The notes beneath the pieces were generated by a model. The model was not told where the DNA came from. It searched no databases and saw only the letters and a list, made by a program, of their open reading frames with translations. From positions 1 to 47,294 of IMG/VR virus record IMGVR_UViG_3300048599_000894: 47,294 nt of DNA; one strand, given 5' to 3'. Positions 359 through 30,282 of this stretch are shown in pieces. Positions within the stretch are counted from its first letter, which is position 1; each line of letters starts with the position of its first letter. A program made the translations under genes and the position numbers. This DNA is from a virus (lineage: Duplodnaviria; Caudoviricetes).

Positions 359-1087
359 ATGGACCAATCAATTGACATGAACGTGCAAGTATCCCAGGAT
401 GATCCCTGGAAGCTGGCAGACGAGGCCAAACCACGCGATTTTGAATACTTCGGTCAGATGATGGCTGATGTCTGGTTTGGATTTTTCCCGGGCGGCGGAC
501 AGAAACCGATTGCTTTTGACCCGGCGCAGCACCCGATTGATAAGCGCACAGTGATGATCGATATTCAGATTATCCCAATTGCTGCCCAAAATGTTGATTT
601 TGACATCCGCAAAAACTACACCGATTTTTCGACGGACTGGACCAAGATTACCCTGCCATCAATCAAGGCCCTGGGTGTTGACGGACTGCGGGCGCTCAAC
701 GGCAAATTTGTCCGCGTCGCCCAAGTTCCGGGGAAACGCGAAAAGAAAGACGAAAACGGCAATAAAACCGGTGAGTTTTACACTACCTTCAAATTCCTGG
801 AAATTTATGCCGATGAAGCGGCTTGCGTTACCGCCTACGAAGGCAATAGCTCCCATACTGAGCAAAACGATCCGCAACCGGTAACAACCGGAATCAGCGC
901 CGATCAACAAACCGCGCTGAAATTTTCCCGGGCTGTCATTGAAAATACCGTCAAGGGAGAAACTGACCTGGATGTCATTATCAACAAACTCACTGCAACG
1001 CTTGCAGCCATGCCGATGATCAACAAACATTACTCCGCGCAAAGCCCGGAAATTATGCAAATGGTAATGGAGGCAATGCAGAAATGA
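359..1087 (+). CDS. Phage hypothetical protein (possibly SSB-like)
   Basis: AGGAG RBS; lies ahead of the recombination genes; function inferred from position only. Confidence 0.6.
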   Translation: MDQSIDMNVQVSQDDPWKLADEAKPRDFEYFGQMMADVWFGFFPGGGQKPIAFDPAQHPIDKRTVMIDIQIIPIAAQNVDFDIRKNYTDFSTDWTKITLPSIKALGVDGLRALNGKFVRVAQVPGKREKKDENGNKTGEFYTTFKFLEIYADEAACVTAYEGNSSHTEQNDPQPVTTGISADQQTALKFSRAVIENTVKGETDLDVIINKLTATLAAMPMINKHYSAQSPEIMQMVMEAMQK

Positions 1088-1266
1088 ATGCTCCCATGAT
1101 TGATTATGACGCTGAAGCCGTGAAAGTTTTTGTGCCTGAATCTGAAATCCTTTCGTGGGACGAATCTCTGAAATTGGCAACAGAACGATCAAAAATTGCT
1201 GCCGATGAATTGCGGTACTCGGCATTGAATCTGGAAAAAGCTGCGAAAGTGGCGACCACGAATTAG
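1084..1266 (+). CDS. Hypothetical protein
   Basis: ATGA overlap with the upstream gene; GGAGG RBS. Confidence 0.6.
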   Translation: MNAPMIDYDAEAVKVFVPESEILSWDESLKLATERSKIAADELRYSALNLEKAAKVATTN

Positions 1267-1271
1267 ATAAT

Positions 1272-1349
1272 TTGGCGGCGGCGTGGTGGGACACGCAAAG
1301 GTATCGGTTTATCAAGGTGAACAACCAGGTTCGAATCCTGGCCGCCAAA
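1272..1349 (+). ncRNA. tRNA-like RNA / pseudo-tRNA without a canonical anticodon arm
   Basis: Acceptor TTGGCGG/CCGCCAA, D arm GCGT-GGTGGGAC-ACGC, T arm CCAGG-TTCGAAT-CCTGG; no 5-bp/7-nt anticodon arm. Confidence 0.7.
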
Positions 1350-1350
1350 C

Positions 1351-1477
1351 ATGCCCAATGATGAGGATAGAGATTGGCATTACCGTGAGGCTTAGAGCAA
1401 AGCTCTTTTAATCAACCCAGCCATCCGCTGAAACTGCGGCGGACGCGTGGAAACGGTAAGCCGGATAGTGTAACCGG
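1351..1477 (+). ncRNA. Candidate structured RNA
   Basis: Helices ATGCCCAAT/ATTGGCAT, TTACCGT/ACGGTAA enclosing AGAGC/GCTCT and TCCGCTG/CGGCGGA, then CCGG/CCGG hairpin. Confidence 0.4.
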
Positions 1478-1508
1478 AAAACAAAAAAGGGAAAGGAGTT
1501 AAAAAACA

Positions 1509-2246
1509 ATGTCAATTATTGCCGCAATGATTGATTCTCGTGAACCTGATTGGGTTAAAAAACTTACCTTTGGGAATGTTCCTGTAACTGTGGATGTGCT
1601 TGATGCTGGTGATATTTGGGCAGTTACAGACGATTCAAAAATCCTTGTTATTGAACGCAAAACGCCAAATGATTTCCTCAACACGCTCAAAGAGGACCGG
1701 TTATTTGTGCAGGCGGCTGGATTGCAGGAATTACGCAAAGAAGGTTATTGGCCTTACCTCATGATTACTGGTGAACTGCAACGCGGTCAAAATGGGCACG
1801 TTTTCACAGATCGGGAAACTGGTTGGAGTTGGACGGCAATTGAAGGGGCATTACTCACTATCCAGGAAATGGGAATTTTCATCACGCATTGCGCGAATGA
1901 TTTTGATCTTGAGCCGGCGATTATCCGATTAACTGAACGCAGCCGGGATGAAAAAATGATTTTACCTCCGGCGCGAATTGGTAAAGTTTTGGGAATACAG
2001 GCCGGTTTCCTTTGCGGTCTTCCCGGAATTGGTCCAGAAAAGGTTAGCGATATATTAGCCTATTGCGGTACACCGGCCTGGGCATTAGCTGGATTGACGG
2101 ACAGCACATCACAGATCCCTGGAATTGGCCCAGGAATTAAAAATAATGTCCGGTACACACTTGGCCTGAAAGACAATGAAGAAATTGGTATTTACGTCAA
2201 AGAAGGATTTGACGTTATTAAACCATCAATTGAGATTGGAGCTTAG
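1509..2246 (+). CDS. ERCC4 (XPF/Mus81-like) nuclease with HhH motifs
   Basis: IDSREP, GD(x)nIERKTxxDF, RLFxQ; two PGIGP HhH motifs. Confidence 0.85.
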   Translation: MSIIAAMIDSREPDWVKKLTFGNVPVTVDVLDAGDIWAVTDDSKILVIERKTPNDFLNTLKEDRLFVQAAGLQELRKEGYWPYLMITGELQRGQNGHVFTDRETGWSWTAIEGALLTIQEMGIFITHCANDFDLEPAIIRLTERSRDEKMILPPARIGKVLGIQAGFLCGLPGIGPEKVSDILAYCGTPAWALAGLTDSTSQIPGIGPGIKNNVRYTLGLKDNEEIGIYVKEGFDVIKPSIEIGA

Positions 2247-2249
2247 AAA

Positions 2250-3929: not shown

Positions 3930-4766
3930 ATGGCCCAATTGTACAACCATACCACCCTAAAAGAAGAAAACGGCATGTTGGTACTGGCGTCACCGTATAA
4001 CAAAAATATGGTCGAGGCAGTAAAAACGCTCCCTTATACTGAGCGGCGGTATGAGCCAAATCGAAAAATTTGGCTGATTGACCCTAAACATGGTCAACAA
4101 GTTGTGCAATGGGTGCGTGATTACATAGGGGAGGCAATAAACCTCCCCGTAGTCGCTCAGTATAAGGGGGGGCAGGTGATGCGCCTGGTTGAGGTGCGTT
4201 ATTTGGGCGCGTGCAAATTGCGTGACAATGATATTTCCGCTGCTTTTGGGCTGGTCGGAAATGATTGGTCGATTGTGTTCCCGGAATCAGTTTTGCGGTC
4301 TTGGTTTGACGCCGGGGATGTTCAGCCCGCACCGAATGCGCAGCAAACGCTTTACCAGGTGTTGGGCATCAAAAAAACAGCTTCGGAAGATGAAATAAAA
4401 ACTGCTTTCCGGCGGATGACCAAACAATGGCACCCGGATGTTTGCAAGGAACCGAATGCTACTGAAATTTTTATACATATCCGGGACGCCTACGCCTTAT
4501 TGAGTGATATCGGGAAACGGGCGCGGTATGACGCTGGTTTGGCGCTGGAAGCAACATTAAATCAAAAGCAAAAAACAATTGAGGATTTGTTATCTGTTTA
4601 TCGGGCGCCTTTGCGCTGCGGAAATATTTTGGTTGAGGGTGTTTATAAGGTTGGGCGCCTGGAAGTGTCGAAAATTTTGGCCTGGGAAGATATTGTCAAA
4701 AACGGAAAAACTTTGATTACTTCTTGGCCTATGGGATCTGATAAGCCGGTCGAGGTGTGGGCATGA
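3930..4766 (+). CDS. J-domain (DnaJ-like) protein with HARP-like N-terminus
   Basis: LYQVLG..ASEDEIKTAFRR..QWHPD..F..IRDAYALLSD..RARYD. Confidence 0.85.
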   Translation: MAQLYNHTTLKEENGMLVLASPYNKNMVEAVKTLPYTERRYEPNRKIWLIDPKHGQQVVQWVRDYIGEAINLPVVAQYKGGQVMRLVEVRYLGACKLRDNDISAAFGLVGNDWSIVFPESVLRSWFDAGDVQPAPNAQQTLYQVLGIKKTASEDEIKTAFRRMTKQWHPDVCKEPNATEIFIHIRDAYALLSDIGKRARYDAGLALEATLNQKQKTIEDLLSVYRAPLRCGNILVEGVYKVGRLEVSKILAWEDIVKNGKTLITSWPMGSDKPVEVWA

Positions 4767-8795: not shown

Positions 8796-9944
8796 ATGGC
8801 AAATACAACTGTGCAATCTCAGATCGGTCAAAAAACCGGCAGTATTGGTGACTATGTTGCTATGATGCATTCCCTCAATTACGAATTTCGATTTAACGAA
8901 ATTACTGATCAAATCGAAGTCAACGGGAAACCGCTCAGTGACGAAATGTTTTCGAAGATCCAATATCAATTGATCAATCGCGGGCTTTCGAACGAACGGT
9001 TCACCCGGGTAGCACTTGAAGCGACTGCTTACGATAATCGTTATCACCCAATAATTGATTATCTGAGCAAGCTCCCATATGACGGAGGCCATTATTTTGA
9101 TGATCTGGTGGCATGTTTTGATAACCCAGACCGGTTAATTTCAGTCTATTTGCGAAAATGGCTGCTGGGAACCATTTCAAAAACGGTGAGCGGAACACAA
9201 AACCGGATGTTGATTTTAGACGGTCCGCAAGGAATCGGTAAATCACTCTTCGTCAAATGGCTTTGTTCCAGCATGCCAGATTATTACGCAGAGGGATCAA
9301 TTGACACAGACAGCAAAGATACCCAAATTCGCATGACCACAAAATGGATTTGGGAAGTCGGTGAACTTGGCTCAACGTTTCGAAAATCTGACCGAGAAGC
9401 ACTGAAAAACTTGATCACTATGCAGATGATGACTTTCCGCCGGCCGTACGGACGGTACGACAAAACAAAACCAGTCCTCGCTAATTTGATTGGAACGATC
9501 AACAATGAAGGTGGTTTTCTGGATGACCCAACCGGAAGCCGGCGATTCATGATTTGCGAAATCAAGAAAATCGACTGGAAAACGTACACGAAAATTGATG
9601 TGGATAAACTTTGGGGAGAAATTTACGCGGCCTATCTAATTGGTGAAGATGCTGATTTTACTGACGGTCAGAAAAAACAAACCGAAACGAATAATAAAAA
9701 TTACGAAGTTGAAGACCCGGTTGAACTTGTCTTCCTGGATCAATTTCGCATTCAGCCAGGTAACACAAGCTTTTTCACAACGACCGCGGAAATCACCTAC
9801 ACGGTTCAGGAAAAGATCGGGAAATTTTCATCTCCAAAAGCCATGCAAATGGCAATTGCATCCACATGCCGCAAGCTTGAATTGGAACGCGGCCGGCAAA
9901 ACGGGCAGCGCGGGTACTATGGAATCACCAAAAAACTGCCTTAA
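8796..9944 (+). CDS. VapE-family (SF3-like) helicase/ATPase
   Basis: Walker A GPQGIGKS; EVGEL; RRPYGR; GTIN..FLDDPTGSRRF. Confidence 0.9.
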   Translation: MANTTVQSQIGQKTGSIGDYVAMMHSLNYEFRFNEITDQIEVNGKPLSDEMFSKIQYQLINRGLSNERFTRVALEATAYDNRYHPIIDYLSKLPYDGGHYFDDLVACFDNPDRLISVYLRKWLLGTISKTVSGTQNRMLILDGPQGIGKSLFVKWLCSSMPDYYAEGSIDTDSKDTQIRMTTKWIWEVGELGSTFRKSDREALKNLITMQMMTFRRPYGRYDKTKPVLANLIGTINNEGGFLDDPTGSRRFMICEIKKIDWKTYTKIDVDKLWGEIYAAYLIGEDADFTDGQKKQTETNNKNYEVEDPVELVFLDQFRIQPGNTSFFTTTAEITYTVQEKIGKFSSPKAMQMAIASTCRKLELERGRQNGQRGYYGITKKLP

Positions 9945-9949
9945 TCAGC

Positions 9950-10251
9950 TTGCCAACCTCACTCAAAAGGTTGGCAAATTTTTGAAAAAGGTTGGCAAAT
10001 CTAATGCCAACCTTGTTGAAATAAAAACGCGAAAAATCAATAAAGTTTCGCGTAGATATAAAAAACTGTCAACCTTGCCAACCTTGCCAACCTTTTTTGA
10101 TAACTTTCAAGCGATTTTTTGCCAACCTTGCCAACCTTGCCAACCTTTTCTTAAACTGATTTTTTTTAAGTAATATAGTATACAGCAGTAGAAAAAGTTG
10201 GCATGAAAAAAGTTAATGCAAAGTAGGTTGACAAGGTTGGCAGGTTGGCAA
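9950..10251. repeat. Putative replication origin, about 14 iterons (TTGCCAACC)
   Basis: Tandem 9-bp repeats at 10067-10147, inverted copies at 9969, 9990 and 10196-10251, AT-rich centre; lies between helicase and prim-pol. Confidence 0.8.
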
Positions 10252-10264
10252 CAAGAGGAAAATA

Positions 10265-11095
10265 ATGAAATTAATTGATGTTGCGCAAACCTGGGTAAAT
10301 AATGGATATACGGTAATTCCGTTGGTTTACCGATCCAAAAAACCGCTCATTTTTTGGGAGCCGTACCAAGACCGCACCCCCTCCCATACTGAGTTGCTGC
10401 AATGGTTTCCGTCCGAGATGCGCAATATTGGGCTTGTGATCAAAGATAATTTAGTTGTTATTGATTTTGATGTTCAGGAAGTATTTGACTATTGGTATAG
10501 TCTTTATCCAATTGACACGTATATGATCAAAACGCGTCGGGGTGTGCATGTTTATATTAAAACGAGTCAACCAACAAAAAATTATCATAGCGAATTATTA
10601 GACATAAAATCTGAGCGTGGATATGTTTTGATCCCACCGTCAATTCATCCGAGTGGATATCAATACCAGGTACTTTGTGAAAGCAGTATTACTCAGTATG
10701 GGCGGCTTGAAGATGTTTTACCGGCCAGTTTTATGCCGGCGCCGGAATTAGCATGGCGCGAAATAGTTTCTCAGGTTTCGGCCAACGTAGATCCTTGGGA
10801 CCTGGCTGATTCCGCCACGGAAATTACCAGCAATTTGATTAATCAAATTCACCAGTCTGTTTCAATTTTGCAATTACTTCCTCGCGCTGAACAATCTTCC
10901 CGAGATGGACGCTGGTATGTTGCGCTTTGTCCGTTTCATGATGATCACACCCCATCATTTTGGATTGATACTCGCCGAGGTCTTTGCGGCTGCCGGAAAT
11001 GTAACATCAAAGAGATGGATGTTATTAATCTATATGCACGGTTGAATAATATCTCCAACGTCCAGGCCCTGCGCAAGCTGGCGAAGATAACTTGA
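10265..11095 (+). CDS. Bifunctional primase-polymerase with C-terminal CHC2 zinc finger
   Basis: NIGL..VVIDFD, TRRGVHVY, YVLIPPSIHPSG; CPFHDDHTPSF..CxxC. Confidence 0.9.
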   Translation: MKLIDVAQTWVNNGYTVIPLVYRSKKPLIFWEPYQDRTPSHTELLQWFPSEMRNIGLVIKDNLVVIDFDVQEVFDYWYSLYPIDTYMIKTRRGVHVYIKTSQPTKNYHSELLDIKSERGYVLIPPSIHPSGYQYQVLCESSITQYGRLEDVLPASFMPAPELAWREIVSQVSANVDPWDLADSATEITSNLINQIHQSVSILQLLPRAEQSSRDGRWYVALCPFHDDHTPSFWIDTRRGLCGCRKCNIKEMDVINLYARLNNISNVQALRKLAKIT

Positions 11096-13110: not shown

Positions 13111-13237
13111 GGTTGTTTTTGTGTTCATTATCGTTTTTATCCCTCTGGTTATTGGTATGCTGGCCGGGCTGATTTACAAGTTAGTTATTTCCTGGTATGC
13201 AGCCGTGATTGAAGGTTTCGAGGCAACGTCTAAATGA
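13037..13237 (+). CDS. Small membrane protein (start uncertain)
   Basis: Hydrophobic ORF filling the terL-portal gap. Confidence 0.4.
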   Translation: MKNLKTEMTMLLKRFGTGRIFALAKVVFVFIIVFIPLVIGMLAGLIYKLVISWYAAVIEGFEATSK

Positions 13238-15327: not shown

Positions 15328-15328
15328 C

Positions 15329-17467: not shown

Positions 17468-17476
17468 GAAAAGAGC

Positions 17477-19612: not shown

Positions 19613-20060
19613 GACCTGGATTGACGATATTACATATTTATGGGCAGCGATTTCCGATTTTCGCGGCAGTAATGTGCATTCTTATAAGGTTTTCAAAAAA
19701 GAGGAATTCCCGGAATCGATTACCGAAGTCCCAGCCGCAATCACCTATATTACCTCTTTGCCGGTTATACAGTATTCTGCTGGCGGCCCGTCAATTTTAA
19801 TTTATTCCGGCGTGACGGAATTCCACTTAACTCAAAGTGTGGCAAAAAATCAATACCCCTACGTGATGCGATTTTATGACCCGATTATTCAGGCAGCGGC
19901 CGCGCACGTCACGCTTTTCGGCAAAGTCAGTCATTTTGTTTTGACCGGTGAGCCGCCAATTCGGCCCGGAATTTTACAGTATGGTTCGGAAAGTCCGCAT
20001 CTTGGCATAGTGGTAAATTGGCAGGTCAAGGAAACGCCGGCCATTACCGTGGAGGCTTAA
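19602..20060 (+). CDS. Putative tail terminator
   Basis: Position before the major tail gene; size. Confidence 0.6.
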   Translation: MGAETWIDDITYLWAAISDFRGSNVHSYKVFKKEEFPESITEVPAAITYITSLPVIQYSAGGPSILIYSGVTEFHLTQSVAKNQYPYVMRFYDPIIQAAAAHVTLFGKVSHFVLTGEPPIRPGILQYGSESPHLGIVVNWQVKETPAITVEA

Positions 20061-20062
20061 TC

Positions 20063-21073
20063 ATGGGTACATCAACTCTAAGAAAAATGCAGTACGGCAA
20101 GGAAACTACGCATGGTACAGCGGTTGCCGCAAATACGTTGCTGCCGATTGCCGTACAGCAAATAAAAGACGACCGCAAGCCGACTTACCCGCGCGAAAAC
20201 GTTGGCGTTTTGGCAAACGCTTCGCGCAGCTATATTTCGGGTCGGATCGTCAAAGACACACTCAAGTGGGATAGCGCTTTTTACCAGCTTCTCCCCCTCA
20301 TACTGAGCTGCGGTGTCAAAGGCGGTTTAACTCCGTCAGAAGTCAATGTCGGTCAGGGAGATTACTCCTGGGCGTTTTCGCCGGCATGGGACGGGACCAG
20401 CAATGCGCAAAACAGTATCACCCTAGAACGAGGCGACAATGATTTTATGGTCGAGACAGAATATGTTATGTTTGACTCGATCAAAATCAGCGGCGAAATG
20501 AACCAGGACGGCGGCGATTCTACTGAAAGCATTGAAGTTAGTTATTTCGGCCGGCAGAACACGGTTACTTCTTTCACGGGCGGTTTGAGCATTCCAGTTT
20601 TGACGCCGATTAACGCAAAGTTGACCAAACTGTACATTGATTCGGCTTGGGCGGATGTAGGCGACACCGAAAAAACGCTCACTTTGCGGTCATATGACGT
20701 TGAAATTCAGACTGGCCTACATCCGAAGTTTCACGGCAGCGGTCAAGAAACTTTCGACAATCACGGCGAAGGCCCCATGTCAATCATGGCTTCTTTTGTT
20801 TTTGAGGGTAACGCCAACGCAGAAGCTATTTACACTGCCAGAGATGCGCAAGCCTTGCAGGTGATTCGTCTGGCGACGACTGGCCCACAAATTGGATCAG
20901 GCGCAAACCACAGCCGTACTCTTGATTTTTCCGGCACGTGGAGCAGCGTGATCCCGCTTTCATCCGAATCCAATGGCAATAATCTTTGGGCGGCAGTCCT
21001 GCAAGGGTTTTACGATCCGACTGGTGCAAAAATGTTTGATATTTCCGTAGTCACGAACAAGAGCGCAATCTAA
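20063..21073 (+). CDS. Major tail tube protein
   Basis: GGAGG RBS at this ATG; QYGKETTHGTAV start; position. Confidence 0.8.
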   Translation: MGTSTLRKMQYGKETTHGTAVAANTLLPIAVQQIKDDRKPTYPRENVGVLANASRSYISGRIVKDTLKWDSAFYQLLPLILSCGVKGGLTPSEVNVGQGDYSWAFSPAWDGTSNAQNSITLERGDNDFMVETEYVMFDSIKISGEMNQDGGDSTESIEVSYFGRQNTVTSFTGGLSIPVLTPINAKLTKLYIDSAWADVGDTEKTLTLRSYDVEIQTGLHPKFHGSGQETFDNHGEGPMSIMASFVFEGNANAEAIYTARDAQALQVIRLATTGPQIGSGANHSRTLDFSGTWSSVIPLSSESNGNNLWAAVLQGFYDPTGAKMFDISVVTNKSAI

Positions 21074-21641
21074 TGAACTTTGATGTCCCCAAAATTACCC
21101 GCCCGTTGCTACTGAGAAATTACGCGCCAGAATTTCCTGCGGATGCGCTTTTGCAAGTTTGGGTGAACCCGCCGCGGAGAATCTTGGAAGTAATCAACGA
21201 AATTGGATCATCCGAACAGCCAGACGCAGAAAAATCGGTGATCCTTTACGCCGAGCTTTGGGGAATCAGCCGGGAAGAACTGCTTAAATTCGTGAATACT
21301 TTCGCGGAAACTGATCCGAGTTTGGTTCCGTGGTGCATGGCTCAAACGGTGTTCATGATTTCCGAACATCGCAACCGGCTAAAAAAAAATTGGATGACGC
21401 CGCTTTTTCCGTGGCGAAGCGAGGAAAAACAGAACTATCCGAACTGAACGACATATTTTTGGCGCATGAACTGAACAGTATTTTGGGAGGGCCATTTTTG
21501 ACCCCGTGGGATGTGCGCAACTTGCCAGAAAGTGAGCTCCTCCCCATACTGAGTATGCGCAAAGTCGCAGAAATCAAAGATAACTTGCAAAAGGTTGACG
21601 CTGAATTTGCAGCGTGGAGAAACAACAATGCCAGAAAGTAA
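21073..21641 (+). CDS. Tail assembly chaperone pair (21073-21447 plus -1 frameshift extension to 21641)
   Basis: A9 run at 21381-21389; overlapping -1 frame ORF ends at the TMP start. Confidence 0.75.
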
Positions 21642-22947
21642 CATCGATATCATTATCAAGTCAAAACAGGAAGGTAACGGCGCTGAAACTACGATTGAAG
21701 ACCTGCAAAACATGAGTCAGGGTTTGACAAATGTTGAAAAGGCCATGGCCGGAACGCGCAGCACCATTGCTGGGCTTGATAGTGATATCAAAGTTTTTGG
21801 CACAAATTTAGGGTCAACCGCCGATCTTTTGGGGGGAATGGGTATCAGCATTCCGGTTACTCCCATGCAGTTATTTGGTCAGGCGCTTGCTACCGCGAAA
21901 AATTTTATTGATGGATCAATTGAATCATATTCTCAGTATGTGGACGAGATGGATAAACTTGCCCAATTTACGGGGATGACAATTGAAGAAAGCAGCCGGT
22001 TATATCAGGTATCAGACGATTTGCGCATCAATACCAACTCATTGGAGCTGGCTCTGCGAACCATGGCTCAAAATGGATTAATTCCAAGCATCGAAGGTCT
22101 GGCACAATTATCTGACCAGTACACCGCGATTCAAGATCCTGTTACCCAGGCGCAATTTTTGATTGATCAATTTGGAAGCCGGGCTGGCGCAGAAATGGCC
22201 CGCATGATGGGTATTGGTGGAGATGCAATTCGCACTGCTGCGGCCGGCATTGATGATTACATGGTTGTCACAGGAAAATCAAGAGATGAAGTAGATCAAT
22301 ACCTGCAAACACAGGACAAATGGGAAGAAACGCTCGGGCAAATAAATTACATGCTGGCAACAGCGTTTTTACCGGTGTTGACCGATCTTTTGAATTTGAT
22401 CATGGACACCGACGAAGAAAATCAGAATGGTGTTGCGCAATGGATGCGTTATATTCCGGTGCTTTCCCAAGTGCGCGAGGCTTTTATTTTTGTCCGGCAA
22501 GTTATGGGGCTGGGAACCGATGACATTGATACTCAAGCCAACGCAATCAACAGCACTGCTAACGCATGGGACAATGCCACAAACGCGGCAAAAACCTATA
22601 ACGGTTATGTTTCCGGTACTCGCGGGAATCTATCTGACCGGCCAGGATATGGCAGTATCTACGATGAGGGATACGTACACCCAACTTATTCCGCACCAAC
22701 TGGCAGCGGTCGCGCCCAAGGCGGGGAAGTATTTCCGGGCGTGAGTTATCCGGTAGGTGAGCGGCAGGTAGAAATGTTTACCCCCTCAGTGCCTGGATAT
22801 ATTTCACCCAGCGCGCAACCACAGCAAAACATTATTTTTAACTATCAGCCGGCCGTCAGTTTAGCCGATGAAGCCGAAGCGCAACGTGTTTTGACTCCGT
22901 ACATCATGGAGGCTTTGCGCAGCAAGGGGCTGAGTTATGGCTACTGA
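21628..22947 (+). CDS. Tape measure protein (short)
   Basis: GGAG RBS; helical; C-terminal RAQGG..YPVGE..EMFTP motif. Confidence 0.82.
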   Translation: MPESNIDIIIKSKQEGNGAETTIEDLQNMSQGLTNVEKAMAGTRSTIAGLDSDIKVFGTNLGSTADLLGGMGISIPVTPMQLFGQALATAKNFIDGSIESYSQYVDEMDKLAQFTGMTIEESSRLYQVSDDLRINTNSLELALRTMAQNGLIPSIEGLAQLSDQYTAIQDPVTQAQFLIDQFGSRAGAEMARMMGIGGDAIRTAAAGIDDYMVVTGKSRDEVDQYLQTQDKWEETLGQINYMLATAFLPVLTDLLNLIMDTDEENQNGVAQWMRYIPVLSQVREAFIFVRQVMGLGTDDIDTQANAINSTANAWDNATNAAKTYNGYVSGTRGNLSDRPGYGSIYDEGYVHPTYSAPTGSGRAQGGEVFPGVSYPVGERQVEMFTPSVPGYISPSAQPQQNIIFNYQPAVSLADEAEAQRVLTPYIMEALRSKGLSYGY

Positions 22948-24442
22948 TCTGTACGGTACGCAACTATACGGTCAAGGCATTTACGGCCAACCGGTTACAA
23001 CTTCTCAGCTCTGGGCGCTAGAAATTGATTGGGACGGTGATAATCGACTTACTGGAACCAATGAAGCTGCTTTGATGATTGATGCAACTGTAAGCCGCGG
23101 CAGAAAATATCTGCTTAACTCATCGTCAAACGGATTCGAACCGGTCGAAATGGGTTATTTGACAGTGACTTTAGACAATGACGACGACCGATATACTCCG
23201 CTTAATGTACTGAGCGAATTATACCCAAACGTCCGGCCAGGCGTAAAAGTTGCGCTGCAAACCCGCGCGGGCGCGTCTGGTACAAAATACCCAGTATTCA
23301 CCGGGCGGATTGACGATATTCAACCATCTTCAAACACTCAGCCTAAAAATGTGCGTATATCCATAGTTGACGGTCATAAGTGGTTAAAAGACCAAGATAT
23401 TACCATAGATATACAAGAAAATATCAGTATCGATGACGCTATCTCCCTCATACTGAGCAACGCCGAATACCCATATCCAACATCAATCGAGGCATCCAGT
23501 GATAATTTGCGCTATTGGTGGGTAGATGAAAAAAACGCACGTAACGCGATTCAAGAATTAATCGATGTCAATCTTGGAACGTTTTTTGTTGCCGCAGATG
23601 GAACCGGTAAATTCTATGCGCGTAGTCACTATGCCGCTGATGTTTTGACATTTACGCAAGGCGATTTAAATAAAGATATATCCACGCGTCAACCGTGGGA
23701 AGTCATCAAAAATGTAATTAAGATTACAGGTTATCCGCGCACGCAAACAGCAACAGCAGATTTGTGGCAATTATCTGATACGCCATATGTTGGAGCCGGG
23801 GAAGATCTTGAAATTTGGGCCAGTTACAACAATCCGGCAATCAATATCATTACGCCAGTAGCGACCACAGATTTTACAGTCAACACGCTTTCGACGGGCA
23901 GCGGAACAGATTTAACTGCGAGCTGCACGGTCAGCATTGAAACCTATGCAAAATCGGCAAAAATAACCTTGCATAATGGCGCTGCTCAGCCTGGGTATGT
24001 AACGCTTCTAAAAATTCGGGGAGATGCAATTGTTTCACCTTCGCCAGTACAGGCCCAGGCAACAGACGATACCAGCAAGGCACTTTATGGCCCGAAGAAA
24101 TTTAGCATTGATTCTGACTGGCTGCAAGATACCAATTTCATTGTTGATATGGCGAATTCGCTAATTCAAAATTTGGTTAATTCACAAATTTACCCAACGA
24201 TTACTTTGCAGCATCGTTCAGATGTTCAGTTTTCTCTGGATTTATTTGACATCATTACCTTGATTGTCAATAAATATTCGATCAATGGGAGTTACCAGGT
24301 TAGTTACATTGAACATAAATGGTTAACCGATAATGGGCAAGATGTTAAAACCGTGCTGCGGCTTGAGCCGGTGAGCTTGCTCTCTACTGAGCGCTGGCAA
24401 TTTACGACTGAGATTGGATTAACCAGCCGGTTTAGCTTCTAA
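22937..24442 (+). CDS. Tail tip/hub protein
   Basis: Follows TMP; VFTGRIDD, GTFFVAADG. Confidence 0.75.
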   Translation: MATDLYGTQLYGQGIYGQPVTTSQLWALEIDWDGDNRLTGTNEAALMIDATVSRGRKYLLNSSSNGFEPVEMGYLTVTLDNDDDRYTPLNVLSELYPNVRPGVKVALQTRAGASGTKYPVFTGRIDDIQPSSNTQPKNVRISIVDGHKWLKDQDITIDIQENISIDDAISLILSNAEYPYPTSIEASSDNLRYWWVDEKNARNAIQELIDVNLGTFFVAADGTGKFYARSHYAADVLTFTQGDLNKDISTRQPWEVIKNVIKITGYPRTQTATADLWQLSDTPYVGAGEDLEIWASYNNPAINIITPVATTDFTVNTLSTGSGTDLTASCTVSIETYAKSAKITLHNGAAQPGYVTLLKIRGDAIVSPSPVQAQATDDTSKALYGPKKFSIDSDWLQDTNFIVDMANSLIQNLVNSQIYPTITLQHRSDVQFSLDLFDIITLIVNKYSINGSYQVSYIEHKWLTDNGQDVKTVLRLEPVSLLSTERWQFTTEIGLTSRFSF

Positions 24443-24451
24443 GGTGAAAAA

Positions 24452-24808
24452 ATGGCAGAGATTATTACGGCACTAACTATTGCAAAACGGGACGGATGTT
24501 TGACATCTCGTGAATGGATTGAAAAAGCCGCAAAACGGTTTAACAAAAAAGTTGACTTGAAAAAAATTTCCGGCGAACTTATTGCAGCGCGGATCGATTT
24601 CGGTCGCTGGGTTTGTGATTGCGAATGCGGCGGCGCTGAATACGTTGACCCGGCTGACCCGGTATTTTACTGCATGAGCTGCGGAAATACTCAGTATGGG
24701 GGGGTATTGCGGCCGGTCGTGTTTCCCGAAAACCGTGAAGAAATTGAAGCGCCGATTGTGGCCGGAAAATATCATAGCTGGAAACCAGAGGTGACCAATG
24801 GCCTATAA
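24452..24808 (+). CDS. Zn-binding protein in the tail module
   Basis: CDCECGG..CMSCG. Confidence 0.6.
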   Translation: MAEIITALTIAKRDGCLTSREWIEKAAKRFNKKVDLKKISGELIAARIDFGRWVCDCECGGAEYVDPADPVFYCMSCGNTQYGGVLRPVVFPENREEIEAPIVAGKYHSWKPEVTNGL

Positions 24809-25433
24809 CCCTGTTCCGACCGTTGCGACCGGTGATTTATGGACGGCCAGCAACCATAATACCTATATCCGCGACAACTTTGCGGCCGGCGTACCGGATA
24901 TTTTTACCGCGGCCGGCGATTTAGCAATTGCTTCGGGCGCAAATGCGGCGACAAATTTACCAATTGGTTCCAGCGGTCAGGTTTTGCAGGTTATTGCTGG
25001 TTTACCTGCATGGAATGGTGCTGATGGTTGTTTAGTAAGAAAATCAACTGCTCAGTCTATTTCAAATAATGTTTTACCAACAGCAATTTCGTCTTTTGAC
25101 ATTGAGTCATGGGATTATAACAGCTATCACTCTGGATCAGATGGTTATATAACAGTACCCGAAACTGGAATTTATACGGTTCAAGTTGGTGCTTTTTTTA
25201 CTGGACATGCAACCGTTGGAACAAAACGAGCAATATATGTTGGGACACCAACTTTAAGTTATTACTCAGTAAATAGTTATTCTCAGCCAGATGGTAGTTA
25301 TCAGGTTGACATGATTGCTTCATTTACGGGTCTATTTAATGCTGGTCAACAACTTACATGTCTTGTCGCTCAATTAAGTGGATCAGCAATTAATATTAAT
25401 GCCCCATATTTGACAATTGCAAGAATCAAATAA
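24798..25433 (+). CDS. Tail fibre with C1q/TNF-like C-terminal domain
   Basis: LPIGSSGQVL fibre motif; FDxExWD..YITVPETGIY. Confidence 0.7.
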   Translation: MAYNPVPTVATGDLWTASNHNTYIRDNFAAGVPDIFTAAGDLAIASGANAATNLPIGSSGQVLQVIAGLPAWNGADGCLVRKSTAQSISNNVLPTAISSFDIESWDYNSYHSGSDGYITVPETGIYTVQVGAFFTGHATVGTKRAIYVGTPTLSYYSVNSYSQPDGSYQVDMIASFTGLFNAGQQLTCLVAQLSGSAININAPYLTIARIK

Positions 25434-25447
25434 TTTTAAGGTGAATT

Positions 25448-26290
25448 ATGGCTTACCCAACATCACTTGACAGTTTTACCCACAAAGTTAATGACTTTGA
25501 TACTTTCATGGCTGAGGATGTGAATGAATTGCAGGATGCCATTGAAGCTATTGAAGCCGAATTGGGAACAACGCCGAAAGGAAGCAGCGCGGATGTGGCT
25601 GCCCGATTTGCAGCGCTTGATACCTTGCTTGGGTCAAACCCGCAAAGTATTTACGCTGATTTAGCTGCCAGGCTAACCGGGTATGATAGCGGGTGGATCA
25701 ATTTGCCTACCTGTACTTATGTCTCAGCGACTAGCTTTACTTTAACGGGTGATTGGACGACAAAGCTTAAATTAGGCGTGTATTGGGGTGGATATAACGG
25801 CAGCCAAAAATACGGTTACGTTTTGTCCAGCACGTACTCGGCGGGCACTGGTTTGACTACGGTCAACCTGGTGGCTAATACCAGTTATAGTCTGGCAAAT
25901 GCAGCAATCACGGGATCAAAATTCGCGTACAGTCCGCCGCCGGATTTTAAAAATTGGATGTCATACGCGGCCGTTCTTTATGTTGATTCAGGTACTTTTA
26001 CCAGTGCATCGGCAACCGGAAAATTTAAAGTGCATGGTAAAACATGTGAGGTTGCCCTGTCTGCGTCAGTCGTAACAAACGGAACAGCGGTTGGGCTAAA
26101 AATATCTGTTCCTTTTACAAGTGCCGGAGTGTTTATTTTTAACGGTCGCGAGAACCAGATAACCGGAGTTACTCTGCAAGGAATTTTATCCAACGGGTCA
26201 GATAGGATATCGATTTACAATTATGCTGGTAGCAACATAAATGCGAATGGTGTGACAGTCTACATGAATGGGTTTTTTGAAATAGCGTAA
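25448..26290 (+). CDS. Tail fibre / receptor-binding protein
   Basis: AEDVNELQDAIEAIE anchor; beta-rich C-terminus homologous to 42218-42955. Confidence 0.75.
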   Translation: MAYPTSLDSFTHKVNDFDTFMAEDVNELQDAIEAIEAELGTTPKGSSADVAARFAALDTLLGSNPQSIYADLAARLTGYDSGWINLPTCTYVSATSFTLTGDWTTKLKLGVYWGGYNGSQKYGYVLSSTYSAGTGLTTVNLVANTSYSLANAAITGSKFAYSPPPDFKNWMSYAAVLYVDSGTFTSASATGKFKVHGKTCEVALSASVVTNGTAVGLKISVPFTSAGVFIFNGRENQITGVTLQGILSNGSDRISIYNYAGSNINANGVTVYMNGFFEIA

Positions 26291-26371
26291 GAAAATCTTG
26301 GCAAGAGGATCGTACGCAATTTAACCCGATTTTCGCCGTTGGATATCAGCAGGAAAAATTACAGGTGACTT

Positions 26372-27319
26372 ATGAAATTAATTGTCGATGCAGCTTACCA
26401 CCAGGACAAAATTGATTTTGGTCTTTTGAGACCATTTGTTGACGGTTTTATTTTCCGCGCAAACTACGGGACGTTCGCAGACCCTAAATTTGTAGAACAT
26501 GTCAACCGTGCTGTTGACGCTGGATTTAAGCACATTGGCCTATATAGCTTCCTGCGGCCAGACCAGGATATCAAAGCTCAGATTGACGTGATGCGCGGAC
26601 AGTATAACAAGGTCCCGTTCATTCGTTTCACGTCCAGCGACCAGGAACAGCACGGTCATACCTATCTGAACTTACCGCCGTACTACTCGCCAGATAAATT
26701 ATCCAGCCTGGGGCACCAGCACATTGAGGCGCTGGCTACACTGGGCCTGCGTCAGTCAATCTATACCCGCACAACCTGGGTGGATAGCTACGCAAAGCCG
26801 GCTTACAAGTGGATGCAGGATTATACCGTCTGGCTGGCAAGCTGGCCCTACAAGACCGGTGTTGTCTATACTGACTGGCAAACGCTGATAGATGTATATG
26901 CGCCGAAAGCGTTTGCGCCTTACCGCACGGCTGAATCAAAAAAATACGCGCTGAACGTTGGCTTGTGGCAGTGGTCGGGTGATAAATTTACGCTTCCGGG
27001 AATCTACGGGGCGGGCGGCAAGCTATCGGCGGTTGATCTCAATTTTGTAAGTGATGATATTTTTTCGCTCATGGAAACCGGAACGTACTCCCCCCCTCCT
27101 ACTGAGGAAGCGCATGAAATTTGGAAAAATAATTTGGCTGTTCTCAGTATGGTGGTGAGAGACGCACCTACTACAAAAGGCACCGATACCAAAGAGCGGA
27201 TAAAACTCGGCCAAACTTTTCCGGTCTATGAAAAGAAAACAGCGGATGGTTACACTTGGGGCAGGATCGACCCCACCGTCAGCAAGTGGGTTGCGCTCAA
27301 GTGGTCTGCAAAGGTATAG
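26372..27319 (+). CDS. Endolysin, GH25 muramidase plus SH3-like domain
   Basis: D..HQ..IDF, DQE, IYT, VWLASW, LWQWS, VDLN; VRDAP..GYTWG..WV. Confidence 0.85.
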   Translation: MKLIVDAAYHQDKIDFGLLRPFVDGFIFRANYGTFADPKFVEHVNRAVDAGFKHIGLYSFLRPDQDIKAQIDVMRGQYNKVPFIRFTSSDQEQHGHTYLNLPPYYSPDKLSSLGHQHIEALATLGLRQSIYTRTTWVDSYAKPAYKWMQDYTVWLASWPYKTGVVYTDWQTLIDVYAPKAFAPYRTAESKKYALNVGLWQWSGDKFTLPGIYGAGGKLSAVDLNFVSDDIFSLMETGTYSPPPTEEAHEIWKNNLAVLSMVVRDAPTTKGTDTKERIKLGQTFPVYEKKTADGYTWGRIDPTVSKWVALKWSAKV

Positions 27320-27327
27320 GGGGGAAC

Positions 27328-27645
27328 ATGGCTCAAATAACCAACGCACAAATTTACGACGAACTGGCGAAGCTAACGCAGACAATTGGCGCGTTTGATG
27401 CGTTGGCTCAACGTGTTGAAGAACACGAACATTTCATCAATGGAAATGGTAAGCCCGGCCAGAAAGTGCTGAACAACCAGTTCGATGAACGGTTAAAAAC
27501 AATGGCAAATAACATTGAGCGCCTTGAAAAGACAGTTGAAGGCATGCAGGAAATGATCAAGAAATTTACGATTGGCGTTGCAACTGCCGGGCTGGTGTGG
27601 ATTTTATTTACCGTATTGCCGGATTTGATCAAATTGATTCCATAA
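27328..27645 (+). CDS. Coiled-coil plus C-terminal TM protein (lysis accessory)
   Basis: G-rich RBS; lies between lysin and holin. Confidence 0.65.
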   Translation: MAQITNAQIYDELAKLTQTIGAFDALAQRVEEHEHFINGNGKPGQKVLNNQFDERLKTMANNIERLEKTVEGMQEMIKKFTIGVATAGLVWILFTVLPDLIKLIP

Positions 27646-27653
27646 GGAGAAAC

Positions 27654-28010
27654 ATGATGAATATTGAATTGTTTTTAGATGCCGCTGTTAGCGGTGTGCC
27701 CCTGCTGTTTGTGGTATGGGGCGTTGTGCAGATTTTCAAGCTGTTCAAACGGCCGGATGGAAAGCCGCTTTTCAGCGGCAATCTGCTGTTAATTCTGTCA
27801 TTCGCCTGGGGCCTGCTGATTGGCAGCGGATATATGATCTTCATGACGCGCCCGCCGATTTCTGCCGATTGGTGGCCGGTGTATGGATACTGGTTTGGTG
27901 TATTGATCTACGGGATTTCCCTAGGCATACTGGCTGCGGTGTTCTGGGAGGCGCTCAAAGCGATTGTTGATAAGGCGGTGGCGAAGCTGATCGAGAAAGC
28001 GCAAGTGTAA
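27654..28010 (+). CDS. Putative holin (3 TM)
   Basis: AAGGAG RBS; three hydrophobic helices; charged C-terminus. Confidence 0.7.
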   Translation: MMNIELFLDAAVSGVPLLFVVWGVVQIFKLFKRPDGKPLFSGNLLLILSFAWGLLIGSGYMIFMTRPPISADWWPVYGYWFGVLIYGISLGILAAVFWEALKAIVDKAVAKLIEKAQV

Positions 28011-28012
28011 TG

Positions 28013-28041
28013 AAAAAAAGCCCCAGTAATTGGGGCTTTTT
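28013..28041. terminator. Bidirectional intrinsic terminator
   Basis: A7-GCCCCA-GTAAT-TGGGGC-T5 between convergent genes. Confidence 0.9.
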
Positions 28042-28045
28042 AGAT

Positions 28046-28519
28046 TTATTGTTTCCGCGGCCGTCCGCCCAGCTTTCCGTTTTCGCGCACCGCCGCCGCC
28101 TTGCGCGCGCTGGTTGCCTTACCGCCCTTGCGGCCCATCATTCGCGCCGCCGCCCGTCTGGCCTCTGCCTCCTCGCGGATTTCCGCAAGCTCCATTTTTG
28201 CGGCGCGGCGTTCGTCTTCCATGTCCATTCCGCAAATCGCGGTAACAATGCGATCCTGCACCTCGTCCTTGTCCAGGTCGTACTCCTCGACTAGTTCCGC
28301 GACCTCGTCCTCGGTCGCCTGCATCCCCTTGATGTACTCGACCCACCAGTCGTATGAGGCCTGGTCCGCCGCGTACAGGTCCTCGTCTCCGACCTGCACA
28401 AACTGTCCGTTGGTCAGCTCGCCGACGTTTCCCATCAGGTCGTGGATCCAGTTGATGCCGTTCTTATCGATGACGTTGAGTTCTTTAATCTCGCCGGTTT
28501 CGTTGATTTTTACCTTCAT
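28046..28519 (-). CDS. Acidic protein with basic KGG/AT-hook-like C-terminal tail
   Basis: AAGGAG RBS; D/E-rich body; GRKGGKATS..ENGKLGGRPRK. Confidence 0.8.
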   Translation of the reverse strand: MKVKINETGEIKELNVIDKNGINWIHDLMGNVGELTNGQFVQVGDEDLYAADQASYDWWVEYIKGMQATEDEVAELVEEYDLDKDEVQDRIVTAICGMDMEDERRAAKMELAEIREEAEARRAAARMMGRKGGKATSARKAAAVRENGKLGGRPRKQ

Positions 28520-28535
28520 GGTTTTCTCCTTTTTT

Positions 28536-28588
28536 CGCTCATTCAGGCCGGGCCGATTTCCCGACGACGCCCTTGCGGGCGTTTCGCG
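28536..28588 (-). ncRNA. Hammerhead ribozyme, type II, core-insertion variant (copy A)
   Basis: CGC-GAAAC-GCCC-GCAA-GGGC-GUC / GUCGGG-AAAUCGG-CCCGGC-CUGAAUGA-GCG. Confidence 0.85.
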
Positions 28589-28594
28589 TACTGG

Positions 28595-28789
28595 TTATTG
28601 ATTGGCTTCGTTAGCTGATTCAACTATATTTTCGTATTCAAGCTGGATTTTTTTAATCCATTCTGAAACTTCCTCGATGGTGTCCAGGTCATTTTCTTTC
28701 TGGCTAATAGAAAATCCGTAATGACTCATCCACGAAAAAAGGATATGGTATCCGCCAGCTGTTTTTTGAATATCAATTTCTGTGTTCAT
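28595..28789 (-). CDS. Small acidic protein
   Basis: AAGGA RBS; bounded by the two ribozymes. Confidence 0.7.
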   Translation of the reverse strand: MNTEIDIQKTAGGYHILFSWMSHYGFSISQKENDLDTIEEVSEWIKKIQLEYENIVESANEANQ

Positions 28790-28805
28790 TTCATTTTTTC
28801 CTTTC

Positions 28806-28855
28806 GTTCGCTCGTTCAGGCCGGGCCGTCTTCCCGGCGACCGGGTTTCGCGTAC
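28806..28855 (-). ncRNA. Hammerhead ribozyme, type II, core-insertion variant with minimal stem III (copy B)
   Basis: GUACGC-GAAAC-CCG-GUC / GCCGGG-AAGACGG-CCCGGC-CUGAACGA-GCGAAC. Confidence 0.8.
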
Positions 28856-28897
28856 TAGTTTGTCTTCCGGTCTTTTTCCCGTTCGGCAGGGGGTTGA

Positions 28898-29284
28898 TTA
28901 CAGGATCGCGATTGCTTTCGCGTTGCTAATAACGATTTCGCCGTAGTCCTCGCCGCCCTCAGAGTTTTCCCCGATCACCAGAGCAATATGATTGCCGTAT
29001 ATCTCGGCGTTTTTCGCGTGATTCTTGATGTTTTCGATCACAACTTCGGCGTCTTCCCATGCCCAGTTTCCAGCGATCAGCAGTGCGCAGGTTCCGTTAA
29101 GTTTTTCGTCAGTATATTCCCCGTCGTTCCATACCGAGCTGTTTTCAAGATTGCCGATTTCGATCTCTTCCCAGGAGGAGCGCACACCAACCGGACCGCT
29201 GAAATCAGCGCCGATCACGCTGTTTATCAGTTCAATAAATTTTTTCGGGTCGTTGATCAAGTTTTTGAAGTTGATGTTTTCCAT
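28898..29284 (-). CDS. Acidic hypothetical protein
   Basis: AGGAG RBS; first gene after the consensus promoter. Confidence 0.8.
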   Translation of the reverse strand: MENINFKNLINDPKKFIELINSVIGADFSGPVGVRSSWEEIEIGNLENSSVWNDGEYTDEKLNGTCALLIAGNWAWEDAEVVIENIKNHAKNAEIYGNHIALVIGENSEGGEDYGEIVISNAKAIAIL

Positions 29285-29323
29285 CTCGTATCTCCTGTTT
29301 GCATCTTTCTGATTGATATAGAT

Positions 29324-29352
29324 AGTATAACCTAAGCGTTTAGGTTTGTCAA
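29324..29352 (-). promoter_or_regulatory. Near-consensus sigma70 promoter with palindromic operator
   Basis: TTGACA-17 bp-TATACT; AACCTAA-N4-TTAGGTT covers the spacer. Confidence 0.88.
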
Positions 29353-29397
29353 TAGGTCTTATCTTCTCTAATGTAACTTTAATCTAATTTTAATCTT

Positions 29398-30282
29398 CTA
29401 AATTCGCCAGTTATCCACTGGGCTTGATTTTCGATGCGCTTCAGCAATATCGGCCTGTGAAATCTTTAGATAATGCCGGACCATAACTAAAGATGAATGA
29501 CCCAAAAGTTCTTGAAGCGTGAAAATATTTCCCCCATTGCGCAAAAATTCAATCGCAAATGTGTGGCGGAACCGATGAGGATGAACGTTGGGAATTTCAG
29601 CCCGGGCAGCAATACGGCGTAAAATATTCCGTGCCTGGTAACGATCCAGGAAACGACCTTCATTTGTAGCCAGCAATGGCGCCGATTTATTGATTAAATC
29701 ATTCCGAGAAGATATATATTCCCATAAAGCATTTTTTGTTATTCTTCCAAAACGGACTTCCCGCGGGCGGCTTTTCGTCGAATTGTGAAACGGCCTAACA
29801 ATCGCTTTGCCTTCATTTATATCCACGTCGCCGACTGTCATCCGAGTGGCCTCACCAATCCGCAAACCGGTGTCCAGCAAAAATAAAATTATGGCTTTAT
29901 CTCGTTTTGTTTTGCAGGATTTAATTAGTCTGGATGTTTCATCTTTAGTAAACGGAATTATTGCCCTGGTTTCGGCTCGCGGCATGGGGATATCATCTAC
30001 CCCCCCTATACTGAGTACATCCGAAGCCCAATTGTAAAATGTCCTGATTGTGCGCCAATAGGCTTGTATAGTGGATTCTGACCGGCCAGTGTCACGTAGC
30101 TCCTGGAAAAAATCAGTTATATTTTCTCGAGAAATTGAATCAACTTGCGGATTATTGATTGCTTTGCAAAAAATTTGCATGAACCGCTTGTAATTTGATG
30201 CAGTTATTGGTGAATAATTATTAGAAGATAAATAAATATAGAATCCTTCAATAGCTGTTTGCAAATCCATTTTTTTCCTCAC
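29398..30282 (-). CDS. int: Tyrosine integrase (start probably ATG 30270)
   Basis: TGLRIGE, HPHRFRH, LLGH, Y catalytic residues; N-terminal SAM-like domain. Confidence 0.93.
   Translation of the reverse strand: MRKKMDLQTAIEGFYIYLSSNNYSPITASNYKRFMQIFCKAINNPQVDSISRENITDFFQELRDTGRSESTIQAYWRTIRTFYNWASDVLSIGGVDDIPMPRAETRAIIPFTKDETSRLIKSCKTKRDKAIILFLLDTGLRIGEATRMTVGDVDINEGKAIVRPFHNSTKSRPREVRFGRITKNALWEYISSRNDLINKSAPLLATNEGRFLDRYQARNILRRIAARAEIPNVHPHRFRHTFAIEFLRNGGNIFTLQELLGHSSLVMVRHYLKISQADIAEAHRKSSPVDNWRI

Follow-up and report, generated by a model that had tools for sequence, protein, structure and literature searches.

A dispersed TACTGAG word that tracks a Prim-Pol/zinc-domain primase in mobile elements and may be its template recognition site

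The word TACTGAG, with a C-rich 5' flank, is scattered through the genes of a phage (phage 1) that forms the left part of the window (the whole stretch of DNA analyzed, 47,294 nucleotides; IMG/VR record IMGVR_UViG_3300048599_000894, Caudoviricetes). We propose that the primase encoded by phage 1 recognizes this word on its template, a reading to which we give a probability of about three in four. A strand bias that shifts at the putative origin, regular spacing of the copies on each strand and a presence that tracks the primase gene together favor a single-stranded primase site. The initial annotation had suggested binding sites for a host or phage protein; the attribution to a phage protein appears correct, with a single-stranded site of the phage's primase taking the place of a double-stranded array.

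The 27 copies reported earlier (16 on the plus and 11 on the minus strand) are recovered by exact matching in 856-30015 at the same coordinates (Table 1). Their claimed excess over random expectation also holds, with 31 copies in the whole window as against 3.8 (maximum 11) in dinucleotide shuffles. The codon-aware null that had been suggested leaves the excess intact: the 44 listed genes of 1-30270 hold 26 copies, compared to 2.6 (s.d. 1.6, maximum 8) in 1000 synonymous codon shuffles and 1.8 upon shuffling of codon order. The copies had been placed entirely within coding sequences; 26 of the 27 are in annotated genes and the one at 21547 falls within a frame that overlaps them (21330-21641), so that all of them sit in reading frames. 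They use five of the six frame and strand combinations and encode different peptides, in agreement with the earlier view of a signal at the DNA level. Among the earlier gene labels, "capsid" (16042-17406) is purely positional, with no PHROG or Pfam match.

Table 1. Coordinates of the principal features of the window (copies of the core are given by their plus-strand starts)
Feature	Position	Strand	Remarks
VapE-like helicase	8796..9944	+	
Non-coding, AT-rich repeat array (9-bp units, direct and inverted; GCCAACCTT type)	9946..10254	.	between helicase and primase
276-aa primase	10265..11095	+	Pfam PF09250 and PF01807
Tyrosine integrase of phage 1	29398..30270	-	
tRNA-Val(TAC)	30348..30422	-	adjoins integrase (seen directly)
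Second phage-like element	30530..47294	+	37% GC; DnaD-like initiator; without a relative of the phage 1 primase
Core TACTGAG, copies 1-8 of 16	856, 4037, 8465, 10387, 11741, 13758, 16224, 18428	+	
Core TACTGAG, copies 9-16 of 16	20301, 21110, 21547, 23208, 23451, 24385, 27100, 30009	+	
Core TACTGAG, 11 copies	4156, 6128, 10692, 14497, 17961, 18567, 18857, 21932, 24690, 25265, 27143	-	

A C-rich 5' flank of 9-10 nt precedes most of the 16 plus-strand copies, and the earlier estimate of roughly 20 such flanks is a fair one, as at least five of eight positions are C in 18 of the 27 sites and at least four in 22. C makes up 63% of positions -9 to -2 as against a background of 23% (binomial p 1e-35), with A at -1 in 19 of the 27 sites and a pyrimidine at +7 in 22. 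The core itself is strict: none of the 20 one-mismatch variants seen in the window has any copy bearing a C-rich flank. The second element of the window serves as an internal negative control; the four bare cores noted there (36033, 38309, 41299 and 44011) are present, at chance level (5.0 expected). A literature search, mostly outside subscription journals, returned nothing relevant for the word or its pattern.

The layout of a core plus flank, intragenic, on both strands and about once per kb, is familiar from the Neisseria DUS and the Pasteurellaceae USS, which also shape protein sequence, and a DNA uptake sequence or a Chi-like host signal had been considered earlier. The resemblance to an uptake sequence accumulated in resident prophages extends to the strict core with a weaker flank and to fast turnover: sites turn over quickly in position, their place being kept in only seven of 70 comparisons with orthologous genes. 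DUS and USS differ in being chromosome-wide and not origin-polar. A 6-kb integrated integrase/helicase/primase element (L011) carries eight copies (0.6 expected), and there are none in its 14-kb host flank (0.7 expected), which is the host DNA counted directly and belongs to a host other than that of the window. Likewise, a scan of 185,579 species genomes for the full motif found no enriched host and no Anaerolineae match, with the qualification that it used an 18-base form matched by only two of the 27 window sites and may leave out genomes very near the window's own. It returned four unrelated matches as against about 70 predicted by a uniform model, long C runs being probably rarer than uniform. 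As far as host DNA was examined, TACTGAG is thus confined to mobile elements, which leaves both the uptake sequence and the Chi-like host signal unsupported. Given also the second element at chance and an origin polarity unexpected of uptake sequences, we regard the uptake explanation as extremely improbable.

Within mobile elements, the presence of the motif tracks the primase. It is enriched (p<0.002) in 48 of 54 clusters of the main primase clades (clusters set at <90% identity, on a quick search version of the primase tree). Loci with a match to the zinc finger alone have 0-3 copies (62 of 62), and none of five loci with the Prim-Pol half alone is enriched. Conversely, seven of eight motif-rich viral records of at least 14 kb that were found via the motif alone encode the primase, and the eighth stops just past the helicase; in two fragment records (G069 and G112), the available part is motif-rich and encodes no primase. 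Among 50 records with a related integrase, the two that have the primase hold 34 and 20 copies, and 47 of the 48 without it hold 0-5, including all 12 phages that are at least 90% complete, in which the motif is at chance. The motif occurs alongside primases with intact catalytic and recognition domains, the exceptions being 11 divergent primases and the records G067 and G025. Among the genes of the window, the primase alone has a match in every one of the eight motif-bearing elements tested. Primase clade and host lineage are partly confounded. Other candidate readers fared poorly: the phage methyltransferase (6678-7475) is matched in one of the eight elements, unrelated terminase types occur among them, and three helicase families accompany the same word, with AAA_25 helicases in L011 and L039 and a D5 type in G006.

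The same comparisons bear on two further explanations. A host replication or repair protein (a helicase loader, restart factor or host nuclease) might read the single-stranded site, with the replication module depending on it. The origin polarity and per-strand spacing described below would suit any fork-linked reader, and the motif is missing with 11 primases that share the architecture; these are mostly GC-rich and hence may have other hosts. Such a reader should have left host DNA enriched, yet the 14-kb flank has no copies and the scan no Anaerolineae match; moreover, related-integrase phages with another replication module are without the motif and the word differs between primase lineages, making this explanation unlikely. 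The other is a recombination signal that resembles Chi and is read by phage-encoded proteins (PD-(D/E)XK exonuclease, RecT-like protein and ERCC4 nuclease), which the window and most relatives encode. Chi is a strand-specific, non-palindromic signal of host chromosomes that favors the same strand relative to the fork, and this preference matches what is seen here. Against it, four motif-rich elements (G001, G016, G022 and that of L011) have no exonuclease match, and the exonuclease is kept in G068, G037, G042 and G033, all without the motif; in G068, a complete genome, the ERCC4 nuclease and the integrase are retained along with the exonuclease, the primase is of another type and TACTGAG occurs once. 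Neither host enrichment nor a link to the nucleases was found, though 14 kb of host alone is compatible with a sparse Chi. We consider this explanation very unlikely.

The primase combines a Prim-Pol (AEP) catalytic domain, a flexible linker and a C-terminal CHC2 zinc-binding domain of the DnaG type. A PF09250 match, catalytic motifs with acidic and histidine residues and a fold like that of ORF904 place it among the Prim-Pols; the closest structures to the predicted model (pLDDT 92) are pRN1 ORF904 and the Geobacillus DnaG zinc domain, and the residues D67, D69, H95, C222, H225, C243 and C246 are invariant in 68 relatives. The repeat array upstream of it is probably the replication origin, as suggested by the repeats and the skew. 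Of 17 records that include the flank upstream of the primase, 11 have a repeat array immediately ahead of it, as does G033, in which CCTACAC, considered as a dispersed word, proved to be the origin repeat. The VapE-like helicase is a candidate partner of the primase. At the other end of the phage, the named proteins related to the integrase (39-54% identity) come from Bellilinea, Pelolinea and Anaerolineae, among others, which suggests an Anaerolineae-type host, and the adjoining tRNA-Val is likely to mark the integration (att) site and the right end of phage 1.

Orientation of the sites shifts at the primase/origin. In 21 records the strand ratio is 44:63 upstream and 122:44 downstream (p=1e-7), and 35:41 and 95:37 when only co-oriented genes are counted. 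The shift recurs in 28 other clusters (85:132 upstream and 206:89 downstream, p=5e-12), being seen at 20 of 22 testable loci; the window alone gives 3:2 and 12:8, which is not significant. Synonymous shuffling yields no sense bias (17.6 vs 16.3). GC skew at fourfold sites is 0.00-0.04 upstream and 0.13-0.22 in the 5 kb downstream; it rises in 11 of 17 records having both sides, and the shift is not uniform. If the G-rich strand leads, the favored strand is the lagging-strand template. A preference for that template on each side of the putative origin is thus found in the pooled relatives and is partial, 30-40% of their sites being on the unfavored strand.

The sites are also regularly spaced at about Okazaki-fragment intervals on each strand. 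The mean gap in the window is 1.9 kb on the plus strand (coefficient of variation [CV] 0.56 vs 0.91 random, p=0.014) and 2.3 kb on the minus strand (0.61 vs 0.88, p=0.10). The per-strand CV falls below random in all 16 strands of eight records, nine of them at p<0.05, and over 21 records its mean is 0.70, as against 0.79 with shuffled strand labels and 0.88 at random (both p<0.0005). These patterns weigh on a stoperator-like array, in which a repressor, a partition protein or a packaging protein of the phage would bind the sites as double-stranded DNA. Mycobacteriophage stoperators, like Chi and TACTGAG, are non-palindromic, oriented and present in many copies; they are oriented with transcription and found chiefly in intergenic DNA. 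Such an array would fit a temperate phage with about 27 sites per genome, an overall sense excess of 173:107 in genes and a repressor region outside the window. It is at odds with a bias that shifts at the origin while genes stay co-directional, with a regularity greater per strand than with shuffled labels, with the intragenic location of 295 of 357 sites, and with the fact that terminases, portals and the methyltransferase are not common to motif-rich elements. We judge it improbable, marginally less so than the phage-encoded Chi.

Under the primase-site reading, the helicase would open the DNA outward from the origin, and the primase would bind single-stranded 5'-(C-rich 8-9 nt)-(A)TACTGAG-3', probably via its zinc domain. 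The C-tract, which immediately precedes the core on its 5' side, would then template a short G-rich primer, comparable to the action of pRN1 ORF904 5' of GTG. Since chance supplies a 7-base site only once in 10-15 kb, a spacing of about 2 kb on each strand, equal to an Okazaki fragment in length, would be maintained by selection, even within genes. The quick turnover of the sites in position also counts in favor of this reading. Sites on the opposite strand might serve forks from the other direction, or repriming.

The nearest solved relative of the catalytic domain, by both profile (E 2e-16) and fold, is pRN1 ORF904. That enzyme has a strict 5'-GTG-3' site and begins an 8-nt primer immediately 5' of it (PMC2034472); the strict cryptic site and the primer length match the strict core and the 8-10 nt flank here. 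It differs in belonging to an archaeal plasmid, in having a three-base site that needs no genomic enrichment, and in the helix-bundle domain reported for primer synthesis, where the window primase has a DnaG-type zinc domain. The phage NrS-1 primase-polymerase is likewise a phage AEP primase with a long site, 5'-TTTGGTTA-3', and begins at the base that adjoins this site on the 5' side; its authors assign the long site to origin initiation and GTG to restart (PMC8718748). It differs in its helix bundle and fused helicase, matches the window primase weakly in fold (E 2e-3), and the accessible text describes no genome-wide even patterning (PMC8718748). The flank bias at TACTGAG lies 5' of the core, as do the primer starts described for ORF904 and NrS-1 (PMC2034472, PMC8718748). 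Known primase sites are given as 3-5 nt, with 8 for NrS-1, which also uses GTG (PMC8718748); the 7-nt core exceeds the usual range, which counts against a primase site. DnaG has a zinc domain homologous to that of the window primase (1d0q, E 6e-8), and in DnaG and T7 primases zinc-domain residues set site specificity; the approximately 26 active sites and 1-2 kb Okazaki fragments of T7 match the number and spacing seen here (PMC2978363, PMC12839067). Both differ in having a TOPRIM catalytic domain, an N-terminal zinc domain and 3-5 nt sites.

Variant words go with other primases. TACCGAG occurs 22 times in L224 (1.5 expected) and nine times in L184 (1.2 expected), and TACTAGG 18 times in G035 (1.8 expected), with a flank layout as for TACTGAG; the G035 copies (4 plus, 14 minus) show no strand switch at the primase. 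The strong C-tract is a feature of the window phage, the flank being near background in several relatives. A clade of nine divergent primases and the pair L228 and L229 keep both domains, and no comparable word was found with them; G067, with a primase of the main clade, has four copies in 25 kb, and G025 has four in 24 kb. TC(A/G)AGGC, considered as the substitute in the divergent clade, is up 2-3 fold in G041, G042 and G044; it was picked post hoc, is mostly on the sense strand and shows no switch, and we do not accept it as the substitute. N106, W233, C241 and N255 of the primase are 89-98% kept in primases that occur with the motif and 0-18% in the 11 without, a comparison of two clades only, and no residue was found tied to TACCGAG.

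These variants could belong to a private replication code of phages and satellites, a wider reading that is tentative and somewhat short of an even chance. In it, a 7-8 base word too rare by chance would restrict a primase of archaeal type, onto which a DnaG zinc domain has been grafted, to word-bearing DNA, and the genome would be continually re-seeded at Okazaki spacing on each strand. The C-tract would, in the window phage, spell a stable G-rich primer, and word and enzyme would co-evolve into the dialects TACTGAG, TACCGAG and TACTAGG.

If the primase-site reading is true, the specificity of a primase is directly legible in the genome that the enzyme replicates, providing testable substrates for an uncharacterized Prim-Pol/zinc-domain family and a natural enzyme-word series for asking how zinc domains pick start sites. 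Replication needs would then shape coding sequence as uptake sequences do, set here by a phage enzyme, and site-directed priming could make use of a primase whose site is long and strict. The word is also a marker for the replication module of this primase in metagenomes. Sequence from near relatives, in contigs of four digester/wastewater runs, spans most of 13000-29658 in the window, with 2277 differences.

Two phage-like elements flank a tRNA-Val gene in this 47-kb virus record. Exact recounting of phage 1 (1-30270, GC 47%) agrees with the 27 copies of TACTGAG, 16 on the plus and 11 on the minus strand, given in the initial annotation, and the word is the most over-represented 7-mer of this element (27 versus 2.5 expected). 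The proposal that the signal lies at the DNA level is borne out by a codon-aware null, as the 44 listed genes hold 26 copies versus 2.6 with synonymous shuffling (at most 8 in 1000 shuffles). The core is strict: one-mismatch variants have low counts, and none in phage 1 was found beside a C-rich flank. This flank spans positions -10 to -2 relative to the core, with A mostly at -1 and a pyrimidine at +7. The four cores previously reported in the second element were counted again, versus 5.0 expected.

The phage 1 integrase is also found on a 490-kb contig. Proteins of Bellilinea, Pelolinea and Anaerolineae are among its named relatives, from which we infer that the host is an Anaerolineae bacterium. 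Were the motif chromosome-wide, hundreds of matches per genome would be expected; a scan of 185,579 species genomes with an 18-base form, which 2 of the 27 window sites match, gave 4 matches, all in unrelated genomes. The same form matched 3 viral and 21 metagenome contigs, and a looser pattern 17 viral contigs. The metagenome locus L011 is part of a bacterial chromosome into which a small element has integrated. Its 8 cores are all inside the element (6 kb), and the 14 kb of host genes have none. Apart from an integrase gene and a helicase gene, this element holds little more than the gene for a Prim-Pol primase with a CHC2 zinc finger, which is the same primase as that of the window (10265-11095).

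Two scans for this primase family yielded 98 loci, falling into 71 clusters (<90% identity), 67 of them with more than 220 residues. Four exclusions were made: the nine members of a divergent clade, the pair L228/L229, L065 for its variant word, and L232, whose match covers the Prim-Pol half alone. Of the 54 clusters left, 48 are enriched for TACTGAG or TACCGAG (p<0.002). The six unenriched ones comprise three loci shorter than 7 kb, L011 with its dilution by host DNA, the borderline L199 and the weak L054. As controls, loci matching the zinc finger only had 0-3 copies in 62 of 62 cases, and none of the 5 matching only the Prim-Pol half was enriched. Conversely, a search by motif alone gave 8 motif-rich viral records of at least 14 kb, seven of which encode the primase; the eighth stops 143 bases past its helicase. 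The primase is also the sole window gene with a match in every one of the 8 motif-bearing elements tested (5 of them came from the motif search alone); helicase, nucleases, terminase and methyltransferase vary among these elements. For a comparison at roughly constant host and phage group, we took 50 of the 80 records that encode a related integrase, choosing larger ones, most of them new to the analysis; the two with the primase carry 34 and 20 copies versus 0-5 in 47 of the 48 without it, the exception being a 28% fragment. Among 25 of 33 records with an ERCC4 nuclease (8 previously analysed ones being left out), the full primase is present in 22, and 19 of those carry 11-70 copies, with low counts in G038 (0), G043 (3) and G067 (4). 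In the three lacking it, the count is 1 for G068, which is complete, and 16 and 4 for two fragments.

The word itself varies among relatives. TACCGAG is the word of L224 and L184, and several others have a two-sided TACT(G/C)AGTA. In the viral record G035 the word is TACTAGG, with a flank rich in pyrimidines on its 5' side, and its sites show no strand switch at the G035 primase. G035 (L147-L149) is also rich in GGCGATCG (56 versus 12), a word similar to cyanobacterial HIP1. No substitute word was accepted for the divergent clade, and two in-clade primases, of G067 and G025, lack motif enrichment; all of these could have shorter or looser putative sites.

We conclude that TACTGAG is a real, phage-private signal and most likely, with a probability of roughly three in four, the recognition site of the phage primase. 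The model of this enzyme shows two confidently predicted domains with a flexible linker between them; the first matches pRN1 ORF904 and the second the DnaG zinc-binding domain. According to passages of the respective papers, ORF904 requires GTG and its 8-nt primer begins immediately 5' of it (PMC2034472), the NrS-1 primase likewise starts 5' of its site, TTTGGTTA (PMC8718748), and in DnaG the site is determined by residues of the zinc domain close to its third zinc ligand (PMC2978363). As ORF904 and NrS-1 start 5' of their sites, the C-tract occupies the would-be primer template position: the start point would lie 5' of the core and the C-tract would template a G-rich primer, with the zinc domain probably having a role in site recognition. 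W233, C241 and N255 of the zinc domain and N106 of the catalytic domain split motif-bearing primases from the 11 without (the divergent clade and L228/L229), a split that amounts to only two independent contrasts. Passages of a review name AEPs with other zinc domains, CHC2 being absent from those passages (PMC4538821). Primase recognition sites as such are already known; what is new is a candidate site of 7-8 bases that is distributed within coding sequence at per-strand intervals and differs with the enzyme. A literature search, with most subscription journals outside its coverage, returned nothing relevant on the word or its genome pattern.

The repeat array between the helicase and primase genes was taken as the replication origin; of 17 records, 11 have a similar array directly before the primase. 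Pooling 21 records, the ratio of sites on the primase strand to those on the other is 44:63 upstream versus 122:44 downstream (p=1e-7), and 35:41 versus 95:37 in co-oriented genes only; codon use contributes no strand bias. In 28 further clusters outside this pool it is 85:132 versus 206:89, where kinship among some clusters makes the p value (5e-12) overstate independence, and the direction agrees in 20 of 22 testable loci. The window alone gives 3:2 upstream and 12:8 downstream. Fourfold-site GC skew rises at the primase/origin, both in the pooled data and in 11 individual records out of 17. Since it climbs at the same point as the switch, the usual GC-skew rule would make the favoured strand the lagging-strand template. 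Per-strand gaps in the 21 records are more even (CV 0.70) than with shuffled strand labels (0.79) or at random (0.88), a pattern consistent with a protein that reads single strands; Okazaki fragments measure 1-2 kb (PMC2978363). Site position was kept in 7 of 70 comparisons with orthologues, and the sites that the orthologues have for themselves are about as numerous (60). The plus-strand site at 10387, near the primase gene start and just past the origin, is among the few that keep their position in relatives (L128 and L132) and could prime the leftward leading strand.

Coordinates of features in the window and in related loci
Feature	Coordinates	Remarks
tRNA-like gene	1272-1350	called tRNA-Asp, anticodon ATC; early region of phage 1
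DnaJ-domain protein	3930-4766	early region; common to many relatives
Repeat array	9946-10254	between helicase and primase genes
Two overlapping frames	21073-21641	upstream of tape-measure gene; A-run at overlap
Three small leftward genes	28046-29284	47-nt and 16-nt direct repeats between (28522/28795, 28581/28845)
Inverted 46-nt copy (85%) of tRNA-Val 3' part	30347-30392 / 30474-30519	81 nt from tRNA gene
Second element	31363-47294	unusual gene order: initiator, exonuclease, endolysin, scaffold, capsid, tail, holin-like, terminase, portal, head morphogenesis; no integrase seen within these coordinates
Satellite-like 6-kb element	L011:5500-11500	integrase, AAA_25 helicase, Prim-Pol/CHC2 primase, small genes; 8 motif copies
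Portal gene split by intein	L039:12873-16034	intein with LAGLIDADG domain
Primase match with one internal TAA stop	G033:C1:28010-28813	phage complete, motif-free

The frame pair before the tape-measure gene resembles a tail-chaperone frameshift pair, and its second frame holds one motif copy. Contigs of other runs miss portions of the region with the three small leftward genes, which suggests that it is a variable cassette. The inverted tRNA-Val copy between the elements may be left over from an attachment site of the second one.
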